Shown in pieces: positions 3,997 through 54,402 of a stretch of DNA of 64,000 bases. Position numbers and translations under genes: made by a program. The stretch covers positions 3,184 to 67,183 of the forward strand of contig CACWQS010000007.1 of NCBI GenBank assembly GCA_902763155.1. The letters run 5' to 3'. Numbering within the stretch: the stretch's first letter is position 1; every line of letters begins with the position of its first letter. The notes below the pieces were generated by a model that saw nothing but the letters and a program-made list of their open reading frames with translations, was not told the DNA's origin and did no database searches. Origin of the DNA: an uncultured Pseudomonadota bacterium (GTDB taxonomy: Bacteria; Pseudomonadota; Alphaproteobacteria; RF32; CAG-239).

Positions 3997-6174
3997 ATGG
4001 CTGAAATTGTCGGTGTTTTGCTACCGCTTCCGTTTGATAAACCGTTTGATTATATAACTGAAACTTCGCTTAAAATCGGGCAGTTGGTGGAAGTCCCGTT
4101 TGGCAAAGAAAAGCAAATCGGTGTGGTCTGGGAAACCAAACAAGATACTGATATTACAGCAGAAAAAATAAAAAAAATCTCAAAAATTTTTGAATTTGAA
4201 CCTCTTAAAGAAAGCCTGTTACAATTTATTAAATGGGTGGCAAATTACAATATGGCGCCGTTAGGAGCGGTGTTTAAAATGGTTATCAGCGTGCGTTCGG
4301 TGTTTGAACCGTCGCCGATGACCGTGCTTTATACCTTGTCGGGCAAAACCTTAGCTGAAGCTAAATTGAAGAATTCCGACGCCCGTTGGCATGTCATGGA
4401 TTTGTTAAAGCATGCGCCTTATACCAGGCCGGAAATTGCTGCCGGAGCAGGTGTAAGTGACAGTGTGATTAAGACACTTATAGATGCCGGTGTATTGGCA
4501 CCGATTTATGTGGAAAATAAGCGCGAATTTTTAGAGCCGGTAGGAGATTTTGCTAAAGTAGAATTGATGCCGGAGCAACAAAATGCCGCAGATGTATTGT
4601 GCCAAAAGGTCGGCAGCGGTTTTTCGGTTACGCTTTTGGATGGTATAACCGGTTCCGGTAAGACTGAAGTTTATTTTGAAGCCGTGGCGAAAACGTTAGA
4701 TGAAGGAAAGCAGGTACTAATTTTGGTGCCGGAAATTTCGCTGACTTCTCAATGGTTGGAGCGCTTTCAAAAGCGGTTTGGCGTGCGTCCGGCAAGTTGG
4801 CATTCCGGTTTGAGCGCCAAAGAACGTACCGATACGTGGAAAGCCGTGATTGAAGGGCGGGTTAAGGTTTTGGTCGGTGCGCGGTCGGCACTGTTCTTGC
4901 CATATACCAATTTGGGGTTGATAGTGATTGATGAGAGTCACGACCATTCGTTCAAGCAAGAGGATGCCGTTAATTATCAAGGGCGCGATATGGCGATAGT
5001 GCGTGCCAATATTGAGCATTTGCCGGTTATTCTTTCAACTGCAACGCCTGATTTGGAAACCATAGTTAACGTAGAAAACGGTAAGTACGACTGCGTAAAA
5101 TTGCAGAGCCGCTATGCCGACGCCGAACTACCGGAAGTTAAAATTGTCGATTTGAAGAAAGACCGGCCGCAAAAAGGCGAGTGGGGTGTTTCGTGGTTGG
5201 CGCCGAGTTTGGTGCAGGCGTTGCAGAAAAATTTAGAGAAGGGGGAACAGTCGGTGCTGTTTCTTAATCGCCGCGGTTATGCACCTCTGCTTATTTGCCG
5301 CGAATGCGGGCATCGGATGCAATGTCCGAGTTGCAGTGCGTGGCTGACAGAACACCGTGCGGCGCAAAAGTTGATGTGCCACCATTGCGGCTATGTTGAT
5401 GAAATCCCGCAAGCATGTCCGCATTGTGGTTCAACCGATGGATTAACGGCTTGCGGTCCCGGGGTGGAGCGCGTGGCAGAGGAGGCGACGCACCGGTTTA
5501 AAAACGCTAAAATTGCTATATTATCGAGTGATAATGCCGGTTCTTTTACTGCCGTTTCCGATATTATCAATAAAATGCAACGCCGCGAGATAGATATTTT
5601 GGTCGGTACGCAGATTATCGCCAAAGGGCACCATTTCCCTGATTTGACATTGGTGGGAATTGTTGATGCTGATTTAGGCTTGATGGGAAGCGATTTAAGA
5701 GCCTCGGAACAAACGTATCAGTTATTGAGCCAAGTAGCGGGACGAGCAGGGCGCGGCGATAAAAAAGGAACGGTAATGGTGCAAACTTTATATCCGGAAA
5801 ACAATGTGTTAAAGGCGCTTCTTAACGGCGATAGAAATACATTTTTAAATTTAGAAAAATCGAGTCGGCAAATGCTGCATTATCCGCCATACGGAAAATT
5901 GGCGGCGATTATCATTTCCGGTGCTAATCAGGTGCAGACGGGGCAGGTGGCGGCGGCTTTCGGTAAAACTGCGCCGCAGACGAATGATATTGAGGTTTTA
6001 GGTCCGGCACCGGCTCCGTTGTTTTTGTTGCGTGACAAATATCGCTATCGTCTGATGCTGAAAACTTCGCGCAATATAAATATTCAGCAAGTGTTGGCTA
6101 AATGGCGGCAAATGGTGCGTGTGCCGTCAACGGTGAAAGTGGAAATTGATATCGATCCGTATTCTTTTATGTAA
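3997..6174 (+). CDS. priA: Primosomal protein N' (replication restart helicase)
   Basis: GITGSGKTEVY, DESH, LNRRGY, four CxxC zinc motifs, VLGPAPAP, DIDPYSFM C-terminus. Confidence 0.97.
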   Translation: MAEIVGVLLPLPFDKPFDYITETSLKIGQLVEVPFGKEKQIGVVWETKQDTDITAEKIKKISKIFEFEPLKESLLQFIKWVANYNMAPLGAVFKMVISVRSVFEPSPMTVLYTLSGKTLAEAKLKNSDARWHVMDLLKHAPYTRPEIAAGAGVSDSVIKTLIDAGVLAPIYVENKREFLEPVGDFAKVELMPEQQNAADVLCQKVGSGFSVTLLDGITGSGKTEVYFEAVAKTLDEGKQVLILVPEISLTSQWLERFQKRFGVRPASWHSGLSAKERTDTWKAVIEGRVKVLVGARSALFLPYTNLGLIVIDESHDHSFKQEDAVNYQGRDMAIVRANIEHLPVILSTATPDLETIVNVENGKYDCVKLQSRYADAELPEVKIVDLKKDRPQKGEWGVSWLAPSLVQALQKNLEKGEQSVLFLNRRGYAPLLICRECGHRMQCPSCSAWLTEHRAAQKLMCHHCGYVDEIPQACPHCGSTDGLTACGPGVERVAEEATHRFKNAKIAILSSDNAGSFTAVSDIINKMQRREIDILVGTQIIAKGHHFPDLTLVGIVDADLGLMGSDLRASEQTYQLLSQVAGRAGRGDKKGTVMVQTLYPENNVLKALLNGDRNTFLNLEKSSRQMLHYPPYGKLAAIIISGANQVQTGQVAAAFGKTAPQTNDIEVLGPAPAPLFLLRDKYRYRLMLKTSRNINIQQVLAKWRQMVRVPSTVKVEIDIDPYSFM

Positions 6175-6193
6175 AAAACTTACAAAAAACCAC

Positions 6194-6222
6194 TTGACAA
6201 AATGGGAAATTTTTGCTAATTT
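6194..6222 (+). promoter_or_regulatory. Sigma70-type promoter upstream of leader A
   Basis: TTGACA (6194-6199), 17 nt spacer, then TAATTT preceded by TG. Confidence 0.65.
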
Positions 6223-6230
6223 GGACTTAA

Positions 6231-6476
6231 GCAAGGTGAAAAGACTTGCCCGAGGTGTGGAAACCTCTTTGAGAGCGTCAATGCAAGACGTTAAATTTTG
6301 CAGGCCCGATGGTTATCTTTATGTGATGATCGGTGGGCGGCAAAATAAGCCGTTTTACAAAGACATCATATAAATATTCTAGACAAATATATGGCTGTTT
6401 AGGCCAATATGTCGCACTATTCTCTCAAATAGTTTCCAACCGCCGGTCGCTTTTCATTAAGCGACTAGTTTTTTTT
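6231..6476 (+). ncRNA. c4/CI-like antisense RNA-attenuator leader A
   Basis: GAAAAGA-loop hairpin (6231-6249); b1 hairpin with TGGAAAC (6258-6264) and a1 TTTGAGAG (6268-6275), complementary to a' CTCTCAAA (6422-6429) and b' GTTTCCA (6432-6438); P1 GATCGGTGG/CCGCCGGTC; terminal hairpin plus T8. Confidence 0.75.
6445..6476 (+). terminator. Conditional intrinsic terminator (attenuator) at the end of leader A
   Basis: GGTCGC-TTTTCATTAA-GCGACT followed by AG and T8, immediately upstream of the RBS of the 6502 gene. Confidence 0.7.
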
Positions 6477-6501
6477 GTTTATGGCGAAAAGGAGAACGAC
6501 G

Positions 6502-8196
6502 ATGAGTAGAGAAGAAGATAGAGAAACTTTGGAAAAGTTTTTTAATTGTGTCAGAGAGCAGAATTATCAAGATATTGAAGAAGCATATAAAGCCGTATGC
6601 AAAATGCCGGAATGTTATAGTCCTGATGCTCAATATCACACCTATGGAAAAGCTTACTATATAGATGAAAGAATTTATCCAACCGAAAATAATGTAGATT
6701 TTCATCCGTATATTAAAGGTTATTATGATATGGCAGTTACAGAACAGATGAGTTGGGGAATAGAAGTTTCAAGAGACTTAAAAAGGATAAAAAAGTATAA
6801 TGATTCAGCCGAGTTTGATGGAACTCGTGAATTAGTATTCTTTTTGAATAATTATCGCTATCTTAAAGATACATTAGAAAAACAGGGAAAAGAAATTTTC
6901 AGACCGGATACTTTTGATAAATATCCGTTTTTGGAAGATTATGTTAAAGGAATTTTCCGAGATGATTATGATAGTGTTACGCAAGATGCTGCACAATGCA
7001 AAACAATACCAGAATTAGTTAAAAACAAAGATGCGGTAAATAATTATTGTAATAGAGGTATCTTTGTATATAACCCAACAGAATATTGGGATAATATAGA
7101 AAAAAGGTATGAAGAATGGGGAAAACAAAAATGGCGTGAAATATATACGGAGGCTGAAAATGAAACTTTCAAACAAGGAAATATAGCTACGCTTTCAGAC
7201 GAAGAAAAGAAATTTATATTAGAAAATACCGAAAACGCAGATAGAGCTATTGCAGTTGGCAAAACAGTGAGTAATGAAGTTCTGGATAATTGGGATAATC
7301 CGGTTTTAAAGGCAGAAATTCTTTTTGCAAGAGCGGAAAAACCGGAAAAACTTTCAGATGAAGATAAAGAATTTATATTAAAATGGAGTGAGTCAGATAA
7401 AACCCTTGAGGCTGTTGCTAAGGTGTATGATTTTAAAGCACAATCCGGTGAAAAACTAAAGGTATTACTTCGTTGTGTTGAGCATAAAGAAATTCGTAAA
7501 GATATTGCCAAAGAATATATAGACTCGTGCAAGGGGGATGTTGCTTACAGTTTTCCGATTTCTCGAGTTTTTACCAAAGAAGAATTTGAGCAAGCAGTTG
7601 AAGATTATAAAATCACGCAATATCGTCGTGAAAACGAGAAGTTGAGTGCTGAAAATACGCAATTAAAAGAAGAACATAAAAACGTAGAAAAAGCAAAAAC
7701 AGAACTTGCCGATGAGCAGACGAAATTTCAGCGTTATGTTAATGACAAAAGCGCAGAACTTAAAGCTAAAAGTGAGCAGCTTGGTTTTCAAAAAGATATT
7801 CCGGTTGTTTGTTTAGGCTCGCAAAAAGAGGTTGATTCTTTTGCTCCTGAGCGCAAAAAAGAACTTTTCGCCAAGATGAAAGAGGAAATGTTGAAAAACC
7901 CGAATTTAAGGGAAGGGCATTTGGTCGGAATGTGTAAAATTTATGTTTCCGAAACCAATACACCGGAACAGAAAGCCGAGTATTTTGAAGGTTTGCACGA
8001 AGTTCGTAAATCTGGAACAACTAATGCCGAAAAACGCGAAATGGCGCGCACTTTTGGCCGCGTTTTAGAGCGCAATCAGGAATTAGCCAAAGACGAAGCA
8101 CTAAAAGGTTTGGCTAAGATAGATTACAGCGCCGTTGGATATACACCAACAAAACGCGGCTTTAGTAAAAACAGTAAAAGTGATTTAGAAAAATAA
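6502..8196 (+). CDS. Hypothetical charged/coiled-coil protein, about 564 aa
   Basis: Long ORF; ATG 6502 follows an AAGGAG RBS (the track start 6475 lies inside the terminator); internal repeat; coiled coil near residues 370-430; basic C-terminal tail. Confidence 0.85.
   Translation: MSREEDRETLEKFFNCVREQNYQDIEEAYKAVCKMPECYSPDAQYHTYGKAYYIDERIYPTENNVDFHPYIKGYYDMAVTEQMSWGIEVSRDLKRIKKYNDSAEFDGTRELVFFLNNYRYLKDTLEKQGKEIFRPDTFDKYPFLEDYVKGIFRDDYDSVTQDAAQCKTIPELVKNKDAVNNYCNRGIFVYNPTEYWDNIEKRYEEWGKQKWREIYTEAENETFKQGNIATLSDEEKKFILENTENADRAIAVGKTVSNEVLDNWDNPVLKAEILFARAEKPEKLSDEDKEFILKWSESDKTLEAVAKVYDFKAQSGEKLKVLLRCVEHKEIRKDIAKEYIDSCKGDVAYSFPISRVFTKEEFEQAVEDYKITQYRRENEKLSAENTQLKEEHKNVEKAKTELADEQTKFQRYVNDKSAELKAKSEQLGFQKDIPVVCLGSQKEVDSFAPERKKELFAKMKEEMLKNPNLREGHLVGMCKIYVSETNTPEQKAEYFEGLHEVRKSGTTNAEKREMARTFGRVLERNQELAKDEALKGLAKIDYSAVGYTPTKRGFSKNSKSDLEK
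7192..7383 (+). repeat. Intragenic direct repeat (2 copies)
   Basis: ctttcagacgaagaaaagaaatttatatta (7192) vs ctttcagatgaagataaagaatttatatta (7351); LSDEEKKFIL / LSDEDKEFIL. Confidence 0.75.
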
Positions 8197-18005: not shown

Positions 18006-18767
18006 CTAATCTTTTTTTGCTAAAAATTTTGCCACATAAGGATATTTTTCCACGGTTTCCGCATTTAATTCGGCACATTTTGTTTCAATAGCTGTTTCCA
18101 GTTCCTGCATAAATTGCTCTTTGGTTTTGCCTTTGGCGCTTATTGCCGGTAAAAACTCAAATACTGCAGTCCCCGGATAACGCAAGAAAGAATTTTTTGC
18201 CCAGAAAAAGCCGGTGTTAATCGCCACCGGAATCACCGGTAAATCCAAATTTTCCGCCAAAAACATAATCCCTGATTTATACCCTTTGGTCGTTCCCGGC
18301 TGACAACGGGTTCCTTCCGGAAAAATTACCACCGGACGGCCGGTATCGGTGCGTTTTTTCACCTCAGATAACATATGCTTCATAGCCGCCGCCCCGCCTT
18401 TGCGATTAACCGGAATCATACCATAAAAATATTGCGCCCAACCGAAAAACGGCATATAAACCAGTTCTTTTTTCAAAATATAGGTGGTTGTAGGCACAAA
18501 CTGAGTAAATGAATATGTTTCCAGAGCCGATTCGTGTTTGCAGGCATAAATGGCATTTTGCGGCAGTATATTTTCTTTACCCCTCACATCAAATTTAATA
18601 CCGGCAAACAAATGAACCCAATACAGAGCTATCGGCATTACAATTTTATCCCAGTAATAAATAGAACATTTGCGCGGTAAGAGTGCCACCGGAAGTTGGA
18701 TAATACAACCAACCATCAGAGTTCCGAAATATAATCCGTTAGCTAATAAAGATCGAATATATAACAT
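18006..18767 (-). CDS. plsC: 1-acyl-sn-glycerol-3-phosphate acyltransferase
   Basis: KHESALET (HxxxxE/D motif) and IFPEGTR. Confidence 0.85.
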   Translation of the reverse strand: MLYIRSLLANGLYFGTLMVGCIIQLPVALLPRKCSIYYWDKIVMPIALYWVHLFAGIKFDVRGKENILPQNAIYACKHESALETYSFTQFVPTTTYILKKELVYMPFFGWAQYFYGMIPVNRKGGAAAMKHMLSEVKKRTDTGRPVVIFPEGTRCQPGTTKGYKSGIMFLAENLDLPVIPVAINTGFFWAKNSFLRYPGTAVFEFLPAISAKGKTKEQFMQELETAIETKCAELNAETVEKYPYVAKFLAKKD

Positions 18768-18768
18768 A

Positions 18769-19362
18769 TTATTTCTCCAGTAATTGCAAGCGACGATGAT
18801 TAAGATAAGTATATAAAAACTTATTATATTCCGCCGCTAAAAGTTTGAAGGTTGAAAAAGAATGCCACCATTTTTTTATAATTTTTTCTGAATAAACCGG
18901 ATGTGCTATTACTTTAACCGGTAAGCTGTAAACCGACAATTCTTCCAGCGCTCGCGGCAGATGATAATTAGAAGTTACCAGATGTAAAGAATGCACATCA
19001 TTTTGAGTAATCCAATCGACAATTTCTGCCGCATTACCTATGGTATCGGTTGCATTATAACCCAAATATATTTTATGCGAATCGTTAATTTTTATTTTTG
19101 ATTTTTTTTCAATTTCTTGCAATGATGTTTTTTTAGAAACTCCGGAAATAAATAATTTATCACCGATACCATTGTTTAGAAGAGAAATCCCCTCCTCAAT
19201 ACGATGTCTTCCTCCAGTTAAAACCACAATGGCATCAGTTCTATCTTTTGAAATTTGGTAAGAATCGATTTGCCGCACAAAAAAAACAAACCCCAAGCAC
19301 CAAAGTAACATGGCACTAAAGATAGAAGAAAACAGTAATAATATTGTTTTTTTTACCTGCAT
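18769..19362 (-). CDS. YdcF/DUF218 family protein
   Basis: DAIVVLTGG, LFISG, TIGNA, LVTSNYHLPRA; conserved position after ftsX in Alphaproteobacteria. Confidence 0.9.
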   Translation of the reverse strand: MQVKKTILLLFSSIFSAMLLWCLGFVFFVRQIDSYQISKDRTDAIVVLTGGRHRIEEGISLLNNGIGDKLFISGVSKKTSLQEIEKKSKIKINDSHKIYLGYNATDTIGNAAEIVDWITQNDVHSLHLVTSNYHLPRALEELSVYSLPVKVIAHPVYSEKIIKKWWHSFSTFKLLAAEYNKFLYTYLNHRRLQLLEK

Positions 19363-36798: not shown

Positions 36799-39700
36799 AT
36801 GTTGAAATATAGTAAATCTGCATTAGGACTATTAAATAATCAGTATCGCAGCATTTTGAAAAAATGTATGTTGTTGAATTTGGGATTATTTGCGCTTTCT
36901 CTGCCGGCAAAAGCCGAAATTTCGGAAATTACGGCAGATAATTTAAATACTTTGACTTCACCTAAAGTAGAATGGGAAGGACCGCAAACCGATATACCAT
37001 TAACCGAATCTTTTATTGTGGTAGACCAAGAAGGTTCTGAACAATTTTATATTTACGATTATACCAACGTTGATGATTATGAAGAAACATCAACTAATGT
37101 GGACGGCGATTTTACCGAAGAAGATGTTACGGGTAAAGTATTTACCGGCTATGAAGCCCAAAATGGCGAATATGGCGCCATCTATATAGCCGAAACAAAC
37201 ACCAACGCTACCGATATTACCTCTGATTTTGTTAAAAACAGTGTGGCCGCAACAACAAATGTCAGCGGTGCTTCTATTTTCAATCAGGGAATTGTCGGAG
37301 ATATCACCGGCGACTTTGTCGGCAATACGGTTGATGTTGAAACCGAAATTTTAACTGCCGGCGGCGCAGCAATACGTAACTATGAAACTGCCGGTAATGT
37401 TATCGGTAATTTTGTTGATAACGGCGCTTCGGCTCCCGAAGGATTAGCCTTTGGCGGCGCTATTTTAAACCTCAGTAACAATATTACCCACGCCGTTGTC
37501 ACAGATGGTACAAATACTGTTTTAGGCAATATAGAAGGTAACTTTATCGGCAATACGGTTGAAGACAGCGAACTTGTTGCCGGCGGTGCTATTCTAAACG
37601 CGGCAAATGTGGCTGAAACTGACGTTTCTATCGGTGATATTACCGGTGATTTTGTCGCCAATTATGCCTTAACCAACGGCACAGCCTTAGGTGGCGCAAT
37701 TGCTAATATTGTTGATTCAACCATGGAAACCGCGACAACTTCAATCAGTACCATAACGGGTGATTTTATCGATAATAATGTTGAGGGTGATGTAAATGCT
37801 TTCGGTGGCGCTGTTTATAATGCTCTTGGCGGCACAAACACAAACGCTGTTGCTTCCATTGAAGCTCTTGACGGAAATTTCACACAAAACTATGCTCGGT
37901 CATCAAACGGCGATGCCTTAGGCGGTGCTGTGTATAATGCCAATCCGGTTAATACAACACCTTTAGAAACACCATTTAACCCTGTTGCAAATACTTCAAC
38001 CGGAAGCTCTGCAATTATTGATTCTATCAGTGGTAACTTCACCGACAACTATGTGGAAGCAAACAGCGGTGACGCTTTTGGTGGCGCTATTTATAACGAA
38101 GCTTATGAAGCAAGCGAGGCAGATACGGCTGTTATTTCTTCCGTAAGCGGCGAATTTAGCGGCAACTATGCCATGTCTGAAGATGGTAATGCTGCCGGCG
38201 GTGCCATTTATAATACCGGCACCATAGGTGAAGCTGTTGAACCTGTTGCCGATGCAGAATCCGTTGCCGGCATTGTTAATTCTTCATTTATGGAAAACTA
38301 TGCTAAATCAACCGGCGGAACGGCATTCGGCGGGGCTATCGCTACCAGCCAAAATCTGACGCTAACGGCTCAAGACGGCTTTGAATCGGTTATCAGCGGC
38401 AACTATGTTGAAGATGGTAACGGTGAGCGCGAAGAAGCGATTACAGCCTTCAAACTGGCTGAAACAGATGAAGCACCAACTTTGACATTTACGGCTTTAA
38501 GCGATGGTAATTTCACCATAGATGATAAAATTACCGGTATTGAAGGATATAAGGTCGTCTTTAACGGTGATGAAACAGGTATTGTTAATTTGAACAACAC
38601 CATTGCCACCAACTATGCGTTGACAAATGGTAATATTGAATACACCGGCGACCAAATGGGCGTTGATGTCAATGTTGAAAACGTTACCTTGAAGCTTGGG
38701 GATGTTGAAGCTCTGACTGCCAACAATTTAACCTTAAATAATGCGACTTTAGATGTTATTAACGACACCATTGACGACATTGTTCTCGGTTCAATCAACA
38801 CGACAGACGGTGCAACCGGTAATTTAGCCATAGATATTGACTTGGAGCAAAATGTTGCCGATACATTCACTGTTTCATCTGCAAGCGCCGGAACATATAA
38901 CTTCAAAGATATGAACGTTCTCGGTCTGCCAACCGAAGAAGGTGCTTTTGAGGTAGAAATTTTCAAAGCAACTGAAGCTGCATCTTTAACCGATTTGGTA
39001 ATGAATACCTATGACGCCATCTACAGTAACATGGATCAAATTATCTTAGAGCAAGGAACCGGTGATAAAATAGGTTATTTGCTTTATGACTATACCAAAG
39101 GCGAACACACCTTAAATGATGCGGTTGCGTTTGAAGAAGGTGACAGACAATATAATATGAACACCGACGAAGATGTGGCCGAAGATTTAGGTGTTATGGG
39201 CGGCGAAAACTCGACTTTAGCCATCAATGGTAACGGATACGCTATCAACGGTAATGGTTTTGAGGGTATTACCGTTGGCGATGGCCAAACATTGGAATTG
39301 AACAACATTCAAGACATGAATGGTTTTGATCCGGCGGCTGTTGCCATTGAAGAAGGAGGAACCGCCAGCATTGCCGACAGCACATTCAGTGATAACTATT
39401 CTGATGTTGTTAATGACGGCACTTTGAATTTGAGCGGTAACAACGTTTTCAATGATGGTATTGAAGGCGACGGAACAATGCTCATCAGCGACGGCACTTC
39501 AACATTCAATGCCGATGTTGACCAAAGCATCATCATTGTCGGTAACGAACAAACACCGCAAGCCAAAGCAACCGATTCGATTATGGATATCGGCACAAAT
39601 ATGGTAACCGCTGATGACATCAGCTTTATCAACGGCTCAACTTTAGCCTTAACGGTTAACAGTGCTGAAGAATATGGTTCGGTGATTGCTCAAAATATTA

Positions 39701-50685: not shown

Positions 50686-51258
50686 TTAGAAATTATAGCG
50701 AACGCCAACTGTTGCTTCGCCAATGTAATCAATATAGTCATTATCTATATGATGATAACGGAACATTCCGCGAATTGACCACTTGTCATTGATGTTATAT
50801 TGTGTGCCTAAACCAGCACGAAAAGCAGTTTTATTAAGAATTTCATGTACTTCCCATTTATCATATTTTCCAGCTTTTATATCAAAGCTATAATGACCTA
50901 CACCGGCAATAGCAAATAAATCGAGTTTTGTATTGAGGGGAATATAACCAACAGCATCAAGACCAACGGAACTATATGACAAATCGCCTATTTTATAACC
51001 ATGTGCTTTTAAATCTACTTCCGAAGATCCTTGTGAAGAAACTTCTAAACCAAAATATTGATTAAATTTTACGCCTAAATTTAAATTGGCAATAAGAAAC
51101 GCTTCTGAATGGCTCTCTCCCAGTAATTTATTTACCTTATTATTATATTCAATTCGTGATGCACCTAAATCCATTCCAATATAAGGTTTAATTCCCTCTG
51201 CATTTGCTTGAGCTGTAAATAAGCAGGCTACACCTGTAAGTAATAGATATTTTTTCAT
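50686..51258 (-). CDS. Outer membrane beta-barrel protein (OmpA-TM/Ail-Lom-like, 8-stranded)
   Basis: Signal peptide ANA-E, PYIGMDLG, GVKFNQYFGLE, GLGTQYNINDKWSIR, C-terminal VGVRYNF. Confidence 0.88.
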   Translation of the reverse strand: MKKYLLLTGVACLFTAQANAEGIKPYIGMDLGASRIEYNNKVNKLLGESHSEAFLIANLNLGVKFNQYFGLEVSSQGSSEVDLKAHGYKIGDLSYSSVGLDAVGYIPLNTKLDLFAIAGVGHYSFDIKAGKYDKWEVHEILNKTAFRAGLGTQYNINDKWSIRGMFRYHHIDNDYIDYIGEATVGVRYNF

Positions 51259-51283: not shown

Positions 51284-51311
51284 AAAAAAATACCCGCTTT
51301 TCTTTAGCGGG
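51284..51311 (-). terminator. Conditional intrinsic terminator (attenuator) at the end of leader B
   Basis: CCCGCT-AAAGAAA-AGCGGG-TATTTTTTT, ending 25 nt upstream of the OMP start codon. Confidence 0.7.
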
Positions 51312-51500
51312 CGGATGTTCGAAAACCGTCAATGATCAAGTAAAAACCGGCTCGGCTTATTTGGCCGGATAGCCTTATTCAGCCGACATCCGTCCAAAAA
51401 GAACAGAAGTCGGCATATATATTTAAGTCGCATATGCACACACGACTACTTGATTATTAGTAGGGTTTTCGACGCCCTAAGTATGTCTTTTCCATACCTA
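51284..51500 (-). ncRNA. c4/CI-like antisense RNA-attenuator leader B
   Basis: Minus strand: GTATG-GAAAAGA-CATAC hairpin; b1 TCGAAAACC (51464-51472) and a1 AATAATCAAGTA (51447-51458), complementary to b' GGTTTTCGA (51319-51327) and a' TACTTGATCATT (51331-51342); P1 GGACGGATGT/ACATCCGCCC; terminator CCCGCT/AGCGGG plus TATTTTTTT. Confidence 0.78.
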
Positions 51501-51545
51501 CTAGCTAGGTTATATGAAATTGAAACAAAAGTAAAGAACTATTTT

Positions 51546-51600: not shown

Positions 51601-54402
51601 TTAAGCATCAACTTCGTCTGTTTTCGGCTCGGCAATCACTTCATCTGCCATTATTTCGGCTGCCTCAATCTCGGTATCGGTTTCCTCATCTATTTCCTCA
51701 TCAGTGCCTTCATCAGCATCGAGTTTGGTTACCGAAACCACTTTCTCATCATCGGCGGTGCGGAACAAAATCACGCCTTGCGTCTTGCGTCCGGCAATAC
51801 GAATGTCATCTACCGGCATTCTGATTAACTTACCGCCGTCGGTTACCATCATGATTTCCTTATCTTCTTCTATCGGGAATGAACTGACAACTTCCTTATT
51901 ACGCGGCGACATTTCCATATTGGCAATACCTTGACCGCCACGACCGGTTACACGATATTCATACGACGACGAACGTTTACCATAGCCGGTTACCGTTACG
52001 GTGAGCAAAAATTCCTCCAACTCTTGCATTTGGGTAAATTTTTCCGGCGTTAATAAGTTCAACAAGCCGGTCTGATCAGCCGTCATGCAACTGATTTCGC
52101 CGGTTTCGGCATCAACCTTCTTCATGGCGCTTGAAATGCGGAGATACTCATCACGCTCATCGGCATTAGCGCTAATATGCTTTAAGATAGACATGGAAAT
52201 TACTTCATCTCCCTTGGCGAGTTTAATGCCGCGCACGCCGGTTGAATTACGTCCGACAAACACACGCAAATCGGCCACTGGGAAGCGAATACACTTACCC
52301 AAGCGCGTTGCCAACATAATATCGTTATTATTATCGCACAGTGCCACATTGACCAGTTTGTCGCCATCATCAAGCTTCATGGCTATTTTACCGTTAGCTT
52401 GAACGCGAACAAAATCCATCAAGCTGTTGCGGCGGATATTTCCGGTTGCCGTGGCAAAAGCAATCGACAACCCTTTGCACTCCTCTTCATTTTCCGGCAA
52501 CTTCATAATTGCAGTAATGTTTTCGCCGTTTTCCAGAGGAAGCAGGTTAATAAACGGCTTACCCTTAGAGGTCGGTGAACCGAGCGGCAACTTATAAACC
52601 TTCATCTTATAAACAATACCGCGGCTCGAGAAGAACAACACCGGTGTATGTGTGCTTGCCACAAACAGACGGGTAACAAAATCTTCTTCCTTCGTAGTCA
52701 TGCCCGATTTACCCTTACCGCCACGTTTTTGTGCCTTATAAGCATTAAGCGGTACACGTTTGATATAACCTTCTTCGGTAACCGTAACCACCATTTCTTC
52801 ACGCTGAATCAGCGATTCAATATCTTGGTTAAACTCGATATCTTCAATTTGGGTTAAACGCGGAGTAGCATATTCATCTTTAACAGCAACCAATTCATCA
52901 CGCATAATACCATAAAGTTTCTCACGGCTGGATAAAATCGAAAGATATTCTTTAATATCATCACCTAAAGCCACCAATTCATCGTGAATTTTATCACGTT
53001 CCAAACCGGTCAAGCGTTGCAATTTCAAATCCAATATCGCTTTGGCTTGGTCTTCGGAAAGTTGATACATACCGTTTTCAACCTTATGATCCGGTTCATC
53101 AATCAAATCTACCCATGAAGCAATACTACCGGCCGGCCACGGATTAGCTGTCAGGCGATCACGTGCATCTTGCGGTGTAGGAGCGGTTTTAATCAACTCA
53201 ATTACCGGATCCAGATTTTCTACCGCTATTGCCAAACCAACCAATACATGCGCTCTGTCACGTGCTTTATTTAAGCGATATACCGTGCGACGACGGATAA
53301 CTTCTTCACGAAATTCGATAAAGGTCGAAATAATGTCGCGCAAATTCATCATCATCGGGCGCCCGCCGTTAATGGCGAGCATATTCATCCCAAAACTGGT
53401 TTGCAGCTCGGTGTATTTGTAAAGCTGGTTCAAAATTACTTCGGCTTGGAAGTCGCGCTTAATTTCGATGACGATACGCACACCTTGACGATCCGACTCA
53501 TCACGGATATCGGAAATACCTTCAATGCGTTTATCTTTGACCAATTCAGCAATATGCGCCACCAAATTGGCTTTATTAACCTGATAAGGCACTTCATGAA
53601 CAATAATGGCTTCTTTATCCTTACGAATTTCTTCAATAGAGCATTTTGAGCGCATCATTACCGAACCGCGACCGGTTAAATATGCCTGACGCGCCCCGCC
53701 GTAACCTAAAATCAGTCCGCCGGTCGGAAAATCCGGTCCCGGAACAATTTTAATTAAATCTTCAATAGAAATTTCCGGATTATCAATATAGGCACAGCAG
53801 GCATCAATTACCTCGCCTAAATTGTGTGGCGGAATATTGGTCGCCATACCAACGGCAATACCGTTACCGCCATTAACCAATAAATTCGGAAAACGTGCCG
53901 GTAAAACGGTAGGCTCTTGTAATGATTCATCATAGTTCGGCATAAAGTCAACGGTATCTTCGTCCAAGTTATCGGTCAAGCAGGTGGCAACCTTAGCTAA
54001 TCTTGCCTCTGTATAACGCATAGCAGCGGCACCGTCACCATCCATCGAACCGAAGTTACCCTGCCCGTCAACCAAAGTTAAGCGCATTGAAAACGGTTGC
54101 GCCATACGCACCATAGCTTCATAAATTGAGCTGTCGCCGTGCGGGTGATATTTACCCATAACATCACCGACAATACGTGCCGATTTACGGTAAGGCTTGG
54201 TGTTATCATAGCCATTCTCAAACATTCCGTAAATAATGCGTCGATGCACAGGTTTCATACCATCTCTGGCATCAGGTAATGCACGCGAAACAATCACGCT
54301 CATGGCATAATCCAAATAGCTGCGGCGCATTTCTTCAGAAATCATGGTCGGGGCAATATTATCGGTTTTAACAACTTCGGTTGTTGCAATTTCTTCAGTC
54401 AC
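51601..54402 (-). CDS. gyrA: DNA gyrase subunit A
   Basis: [33 protein letters not shown], GyrA-box QKRGGKG, acidic tail. Confidence 0.98.

Follow-up and report, generated by a model that had tools for sequence, protein, structure and literature searches.

Attenuators of the trp/his, T-box and PyrR types carry a chain of anti-antiterminator, antiterminator and terminator helices upstream of the open reading frame (ORF) that they regulate, and the riboswitch classes for cyclic di-GMP (c-di-GMP) occur in many copies per genome before pilus, surface and regulatory genes, with a terminator as their output. In the c4 antisense RNA of P1 and P7, the a′/b′ boxes reportedly have, in work of Citron and Schuster from 1990, another target, a2/b2, at the ribosome site of the gene that follows. 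In Bartonella henselae, Brt1-9 are multi-copy RNAs of ~200 nucleotides (nt) that terminate upstream of a silent or poorly co-transcribed gene; all nine precede XRE regulators, and a double role has been proposed for them, as a small RNA and as a terminator/antiterminator 'riboswitch' whose ligand is unknown (PMC5387305). Here we analyse a leader RNA at 6229–6476 of a 64,000-nt stretch of contig CACWQS010000007.1 (assembly GCA_902763155.1), from an uncultured alphaproteobacterium; this whole stretch is called the window. The leader lies in an intergenic gap of 327 nt between priA (the PriA helicase gene, 3997–6174) and an ORF of 564 amino acids (aa) that starts with ATG at 6502.

The locus shares with the classical attenuators a switching logic of mutually exclusive helices, but it differs from them in having no conserved leader peptide, no genes of amino-acid or nucleotide metabolism downstream, and 'barcode' helices for which they have no known counterpart. 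Rfam gave no match to the T-box or any other known leader, and the copies do not precede aminoacyl-tRNA synthetase or amino-acid genes. Like the c-di-GMP riboswitches, the leader is present in many copies before surface genes, has conserved internal loops flanked by covarying helices and ends in a terminator; however, the Rfam GEMM and c-di-GMP-II models do not match it. The resemblance to c4 is in short paired boxes (a/b and a′/b′) on one transcript with sequences that differ between copies (PMC8201110), whereas our leader is ~3 times longer, has no phage or prophage immunity context and precedes an ORF without a Pfam family. The closest analogue is Brt, which is likewise alphaproteobacterial, lineage-restricted, multi-copy, structured, equipped with its own terminator and placed upstream of a gene. 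In contrast to Brt, the genes downstream of our leader are mostly cell-envelope genes and not XRE regulators, and no sequence similarity was found, as judged through plasmid pBGR3 and plasmid records and not through the Brt sequences themselves. The profile of our family, searched against B. grahamii pBGR3 (NC_012847, which carries a Brt copy according to Table 1 of PMC5387305), gave at best a 19-nt match with E = 0.48. Identity with Brt was rejected, since the copies are found in uncultured gut and rumen Alphaproteobacteria and nothing was found on pBGR3.

We propose, with a probability of roughly 0.7, that the window element at 6229–6476 is a cis-acting transcription attenuator, one member of a family, that is off by default and allows read-through when a factor stabilises its antiterminator junction.

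Results

Three mutually exclusive helices are conserved across the copies

The RNA 6225–6480 (256 nt) folds with a minimum free energy (MFE) of −80.7 kcal/mol (z = −5.15), and none of 200 shuffled sequences folds as well. The earlier note, made from the letters of the window, had proposed a three-state switch here, and its three mutually exclusive helices (6304–6338; 6328–6336 with 6440–6448; 6445–6466) do exist, each kept by covariation. The first is the hairpin GCCCGATGGTTATC / GATGATCGGTGGGC (6304–6317 / 6325–6338), which sequesters 6328–6336 as predicted and has 13 base pairs in the MFE structure (6304–6308/6334–6338 and 6310–6317/6325–6332). The sequestered segment, GATCGGTGG, is complementary to CCGCCGGTC over 9 base pairs including 2 G-U, and this second strand overlaps the left arm of the terminator. 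Two further elements of the same proposal were found again in the sequence, namely the hairpin P3 with a′ in its loop and the complementarity of the first hairpin loop (TGAAAAG, 6237–6243) to the terminator loop (CTTTTCA, 6450–6456). The parts of the locus are as follows, with the share of paired positions among the copies.

6194 to 6222, + strand: putative promoter, read by eye, with −35 TTGACA at 6194–6199, a 17-nt spacer and an extended −10 TGcTAATTT at 6214–6222
6229 to 6476, + strand: leader or small RNA of ~245 nt, long form, indicated by the MFE z-score and by RNA-library contigs; the 5′ end is a probable one, set by promoter spacing
6231 to 6249, + strand: hairpin H1, GCAAG/CTTGC, with the loop TGAAAAG (82.5% paired, 5/5 pairs compensatory)
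6252 to 6267, + strand: hairpin H2, GAGGT/ACCTC, which presents the b1 box TGGAAAC at 6258–6264 (96.9% paired)
6268 to 6275, + strand: a1 box TTTGAGAG, a copy-specific 'barcode' with partner a′ at 6422–6429, supported by a duplex test within versus between copies
6276 to 6290, + strand: hairpin H3, CGTC 6276–6279 with GACG 6287–6290 (89.2% paired)
H3 loop, + strand: helix H3′, in which this loop is alternatively paired with 6297–6301 (86.8% paired, 5/6 pairs compensatory)
6296 to 6345, + strand: P1, the extended anti-antiterminator hairpin, TTTTGC/GCAAAA at 6296–6301/6340–6345 (82.4% paired) continued by 6304–6308/6334–6338 and 6310–6317/6325–6332 (86.9% paired)
6328 to 6342, + strand: 5′ strands of the antiterminator (6328–6336, 99.6% paired) and of the stacked inner helix P-in (GCGGCA, 6337–6342, 98.5% paired)
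6343 to 6409, + strand: near-invariant A-rich internal loop, AAAUAA 6343–6348 and CAAUA 6405–6409, around the variable hairpin P4 (invariant alignment columns)
6410 to 6415, + strand: 3′ strand of P-in, TGTCGC (covariation)
6416 to 6433, + strand: hairpin P3, ACTATT/AATAGT at 6416–6421/6428–6433, with a′ CTCTCA (6422–6427, extending to 6429) in its loop (96.6% paired)
6432 to 6438, + strand: b′ box GTTTCCA, the sole linker of the three-way junction in the antiterminator fold (covariation)
6440 to 6448, + strand: 3′ strand of the antiterminator, overlapping the left arm of the terminator (covariation)
6445 to 6476, + strand: intrinsic terminator, stem 6445–6452/6459–6466 and 8 T at 6469–6476 (terminator scan; 93.2% paired)
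6490 to 8196, + strand: Shine-Dalgarno AGGAG at 6490–6494 and the 564-aa ORF from ATG 6502, without a Pfam family

To measure covariation we used an alignment (A2) of 90 copies with at most 93% mutual identity; one incomplete row, L141, is counted in the helix-pairing figures and was left out of the duplex, downstream-target and leader-frame tests. In the terminator-state helices, 88.7% of cells are paired, compared to 33–49% when the partners are slid by 1–3 columns, and 32 of the 51 pairs show changes in both partners. For the a/b, antiterminator and P-in helices taken together, the share of paired cells is 93.8%, compared to 31–43% when slid in the same way. Compensatory changes affect 3 of the 9 pairs of the antiterminator, 2 of the 6 pairs of P-in and 6 of the 7 pairs of b1/b′ (6258–6264/6432–6438), which is 99.4% paired; a1/a′ is 74–85% paired with most pairs compensatory, although the alignment is uncertain in the a boxes. 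P4 is also supported by covariation (97.7% paired). In 58 short-form copies the whole antiterminator fold (antiterminator, P-in, P4 and P3) is 98.6% paired, and the antiterminator helix itself is paired in 100% of cells. Furthermore, diverged copies in the same genome have fully compensated antiterminator strands, GGGCGGATG/CATCCGCCC and AGGGGAG/CTCCCCT, and the terminator arm changes with them.

In the alternative fold, 6328–6336/6440–6448 and 6337–6342/6410–6415 form a stack of 15 base pairs, with P-in directly under the antiterminator. Together with P3 this makes a three-way junction in which b′ is the one single-stranded linker and a′ is the P3 loop; because of this, the 5′ domain could dock on the antiterminator junction. 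Between P-in and P4, each strand of the loop carries a near-invariant AAUA motif, and these motifs form invariant columns in the short-form alignment. This A-rich AAUA/AAUA loop is the obvious candidate for a binding site. The leader thus has the conserved unpaired nucleotides framed by covarying helices that are typical of riboswitches, as well as the features of an attenuator: a G+C-rich stem and T-run just upstream of an ORF, a helix that consumes the terminator arm, and a third helix that sequesters the other strand of that helix. The last two are preserved in the diverged copies of this genome as well. Two further pairings were examined. The antiterminator 3′ strand has another possible partner for its 5′ half in the 5′ strand of H2 (95.3% paired, mostly G-U). 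A candidate proximal 'decoy', GACTGGA with the segment just before AATATG, is only 79% paired on A2, and part of this segment suits P4 better.

The a and b boxes pair within each copy

The pairing of a1 with a′ and of b1 with b′, also suggested by the earlier note, is borne out by covariation and by an alignment-free duplex test on 89 copies. For a1 and a′ the mean duplex is 7.30 nt within a copy (at least 6 nt in 96% of copies) and 3.58 nt between copies (at least 6 nt in 7%); for b1 and b′ it is 6.97 nt within and 4.63 nt between. The H1 loop and the terminator loop show a copy-specific but weaker complementarity (5.03 nt within, 4.11 nt between). For all three pairs, 0 of 2000 permutations scored as high. 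Among six copies of this genome the a boxes are orthogonal, with 6–8 nt within a copy and 2–6 nt between copies. This copy-specific self-complementarity indicates that the boxes are real, cis-acting and specific to their own copy.

The boxes overlap H2 and P3 by two bases each, and both hairpins covary too; two arrangements would therefore account for them, pairing of the loops with the strands in pseudoknots, or exchange of the hairpins for a single long closing helix with interruptions, the variant that appears in the minimum-energy fold. In a nearest-neighbour model the a/b helices coexist with the hairpin 6304–6338 and with the terminator. Docking of the boxes could favour either read-through or termination. 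In 86 copies, the stretch of 90 nt that follows the terminator was also compared to all four boxes (a′, b′, a1 and b1) of its own copy, and it was no more complementary to them than the corresponding stretches of other copies (52–403 of 500 permutations reached the observed value).

A large leader family in small-genome Alphaproteobacteria

The genome (1.47 Mb, 21 contigs, 98.45% complete) has six copies by blastn. A DNA similarity search of 24 further genomes of the genus was positive in 17, and none of 16 genomes from other families contained such DNA. A conserved sequence pattern occurs in at least 116 stretches among genome contigs, and nearly all of the titles listed are of uncultured Alphaproteobacteria from rumen, gut or faeces. 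Across the collected loci, a profile searched with nhmmer finds 153 copies in 147 of 152. Five loci have no profile match, one from the blastn search of the genome itself (L007) and four from the pattern (L055, L072, L099 and L120); these four are taken as chance matches. The 136 unique copies fall into two sizes, a short form of ~190–200 nt and a long form of ~240–255 nt with ~45 nt extra; the window copy is long, and its extra ~45 nt lie within P4. Clear leader copies are also carried by two contigs binned as Bacteroidaceae (L036 and L090), which are probably mis-binned.

A covariance model, R1, built from 58 short-form 3′ domains, reaches further. It finds 13 copies in the genome and one further copy in the window that is absent from the genome-wide listing, giving at least 14 in total, two of them in the window. 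R1 also has matches in 12 of the 150 other genomes that were sampled across the class, one genome per family and 0.9–2.5 Mb in size; the flanks in five R1-positive genomes of other families contain H1, H2 and matching a and b boxes. The second copy in the window is this one:

51287 to 51535, − strand: second, diverged leader copy (R1 match 51287–51398, 54.3 bits, E = 1.8e-12; 5′ limit set by eye)

It lies downstream of gyrA (51601–54402) and upstream of a 190-aa outer-membrane beta-barrel-like ORF (50686–51258) and two lipoprotein-like ORFs, and its antiterminator strands are GGACGGATG and CATCCGCCC. A weak R1 match at 18665–18785 (E = 0.052) was taken as chance because, by eye, it lies inside a coding frame.

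Across the whole window, no Rfam model reached its gathering score. When matches with E values of up to 10 were admitted, the region 6150–6520 gave five, all to eukaryotic microRNA, small nucleolar RNA or long non-coding RNA models and far below their cut-offs. Literature searches found no description of the family, and blastn gave no match in 72,556 plasmid records or in 50,697 phage records. This is a large leader-RNA family of small-genome gut and rumen Alphaproteobacteria with a well-supported structure, undescribed as judged by those literature searches and the two Rfam searches.

Most copies precede envelope and accessory genes

An ORF of at least 60 codons follows 80 of the 90 aligned copies, with its start at most 160 nt from the terminator and mostly behind a Shine-Dalgarno sequence. 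Pfam families among these 80 ORFs include Glycos_transf_2 (10) and further glycosyltransferase families, OMP_b-brl (4), Opacity (3), PilS (2), N6_Mtase (2), RNase_T (2), BspA-type LRR (2) and the capsule family Stealth (1). By eye, ~13 N-termini are prepilin-like and several are lipoprotein-like. In the genome itself, the downstream ORFs comprise four with no Pfam family or a weak match, lipoprotein-like proteins, a glycosyltransferase and the beta-barrel-like ORF; one copy precedes an HTH_3 (XRE-type) regulator by Pfam, and another an HTH-like protein by eye. These are envelope and accessory genes and indicate no metabolite.

In the window copy and three other long or near-long copies of this genome (L002, L003 and L004), similarity extends past the terminator through the ribosome site into the first codons (AAGGAGAAcgAnGATGAGT), which suggests a duplication that took in the 5′ ends of the genes as well as the leader. 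For the proteins encoded after these four copies there is no Pfam family or a weak MORN_2 match.

Elsewhere in the window, four imperfect 43-nt direct repeats (60–100% identical, spaced by 108–228 nt) at 37292–37784 probably encode a repeat-containing protein.

Termination as the predicted default

For the window copy, the terminator fold is computed at −80.7 kcal/mol, compared to −64.2 kcal/mol with the antiterminator enforced, a difference of ~16 kcal/mol. Four short-form copies behave similarly (−62.9 to −71.7 kcal/mol for the terminator fold, −54.6 to −65.1 kcal/mol with the antiterminator enforced). Keeping the 5′ arm of the 6304–6338 hairpin unpaired, or keeping a1/b1 unpaired, still yields the terminator fold. 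These calculations suggest that termination is the default state. Contigs from four rumen metatranscriptome runs (four studies) were also compared to the region 6150–6900; they lie solely within 6240–6474, although parts of the region without contig cover are not evidence of absence. One 209-nt contig passes through a terminator into a paralog-like ribosome site. The contigs hint at a discrete small RNA with some read-through, and at nothing stronger.

Discussion

We infer both the default termination and the stabilisation of the antiterminator by an effector, and the switch might work in the following way. Transcription would start at the element's own promoter, whose −35 and −10 blocks align among paralogs and relatives. 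P1 would fold first and lock the strand 6328–6342, the terminator stem (6445–6466) would then form, and a compact, stable RNA of ~245 nt would be released, held by three long-range contacts (a1/a′, b1/b′ and the H1 loop with the terminator loop). Alternatively, the three-way junction would form and consume the left arm of the terminator, and RNA polymerase would read into the downstream gene. An effector is expected to stabilise this second fold; a small molecule is one possible candidate, a protein a slightly less likely one, and an RNA or physical cue would be less likely again. It is possible, and we suggest it tentatively, that the family is a riboswitch-like class in which the junction with its AAUA/AAUA loop binds a signal of global reach, for example a second messenger or a precursor of the envelope. 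The 14 or more copies would then co-ordinate glycosyltransferases, pilin-like proteins, outer-membrane proteins and lipoproteins, and the terminated leaders would double as barcoded small RNAs. Hfq is encoded in the genome, and so is one clear GGDEF protein, which shows only that a second messenger may exist there; together they keep ideas of an RNA chaperone and a second messenger open without supporting either.

Several observations weigh against an effector-controlled attenuator. The analysis pointed to no effector, and the antiterminator was never the minimum-energy structure in any constrained fold; the size of the energy gap is itself uncertain because the model ignores pseudoknots. The promoter at 6194–6222 was not listed by a consensus scan, since its −10 fits just 3 of 6 positions. 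The RNA contigs show neither RNA ends nor levels, and no DNA control was run. The covariation scores of both helix sets were reached by 0 of 500 shuffles, but such controls overstate significance because the copies share ancestry; more weight belongs to the slid-column controls and to the stacks of compensatory pairs. In addition, two of the seven additional copies in the genome have no ORF within 200 nt (L162, G000:C4:16261-16362, − strand; L163, G000:C17:282-384, + strand), and a second terminator-like sequence, similar in the two, comes after each of them. A locus in another genome (L031, G013:C73, − strand) has three tandem copies at 69–261, 336–532 and 606–799, ~270 nt apart with no ORF between them. 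These ORF-less and tandem copies would fit free-standing small-RNA genes, and L162 and L163 may be such genes.

The last two observations would suit a rival reading, that the family consists of free-standing small RNAs that act in trans, by base pairing or by binding a protein, with the downstream gene incidental and the antiterminator merely an alternative fold. The confinement of the RNA contigs to the leader and the presence of Hfq would suit such RNAs, as would the precedent of Brt, for which action both in trans and in cis is proposed (PMC5387305). However, the antiterminator that consumes the terminator arm is kept by compensatory change even where the arm itself changes, a selection that is hard to explain without regulated read-through, and 80 of 90 copies stand just upstream of an ORF, mostly with a ribosome site. 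As an account of the whole family we therefore consider this improbable. The orphan and tandem copies may nonetheless act purely in trans, and both functions could be combined in the family. Another form of trans action, put forward in the earlier note by analogy to c4, is that a processed piece of the leader carrying a′/b′ binds a1/b1 of the nascent RNA and causes termination, whereas pairing of the boxes in cis gives read-through. The boxes do exist and are copy-specific, so that a terminated RNA could recognise just the transcripts of its own locus, and the antiterminator fold leaves the b′ linker and the a′ loop, where the 5′ domain could dock. The analogy is nevertheless not supported: the Rfam C4 model has no match, none of the 50,697 phage records contains similar DNA, the priA and gyrA neighbours are chromosomal, and there is no a2/b2 target at the downstream ribosome site. 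With neither a phage context nor a match to the C4 model, the c4-like mechanism is unsupported. It is further weakened by the energy model, in which a/b pairing coexists with the terminator and blocking a1/b1 leaves the terminator in place, and by the consideration that a′ and b′ of the free RNA would already be taken in cis. We regard it as quite unlikely.

Proteins and ribosomes could also drive a switch of this kind. The glycosyltransferases, pilin-like and outer-membrane proteins and capsule 'Stealth' gene found downstream resemble the regulons of RfaH, LoaP and UpxY, specialised NusG paralogs that act on surface-polysaccharide and pilus genes, and recruitment of such a paralog to the leader could cause processive antitermination. 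Those systems are not known to use a conserved antiterminator helix in their RNA, though, and a single NusG-family gene was found in this nearly complete genome, which makes processive antitermination very unlikely here. A search for ANTAR proteins gave no match, but the control genomes were likewise silent and the result is uninformative. Ribosome-mediated attenuation of the trp/his type would need a translated leader frame, and an ATG at 6281 does open a frame of 30 codons (6281–6373) across the switch region. This frame is not conserved: the start codon is found at the homologous column in 62 of 89 copies, an immediate stop follows in 33 of these 62, the other frames have 4–62 codons, and one-base indels separate the paralogs across the frame. 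Attenuation by a leader peptide is thereby effectively refuted.

If an effector-controlled attenuator is indeed what the leader encodes, then one RNA design would control a large fraction of the surface and accessory genes in abundant uncultured gut and rumen bacteria. Natural covariation documents the two alternative folds unusually well, so that the family would offer an orphan regulatory RNA ready for the search for a ligand or a protein partner. The leaders would also be a sequence marker for the surface-gene regulon of their host organisms, and a natural example of locus-specific 'barcode' helices within a repeated regulatory element.

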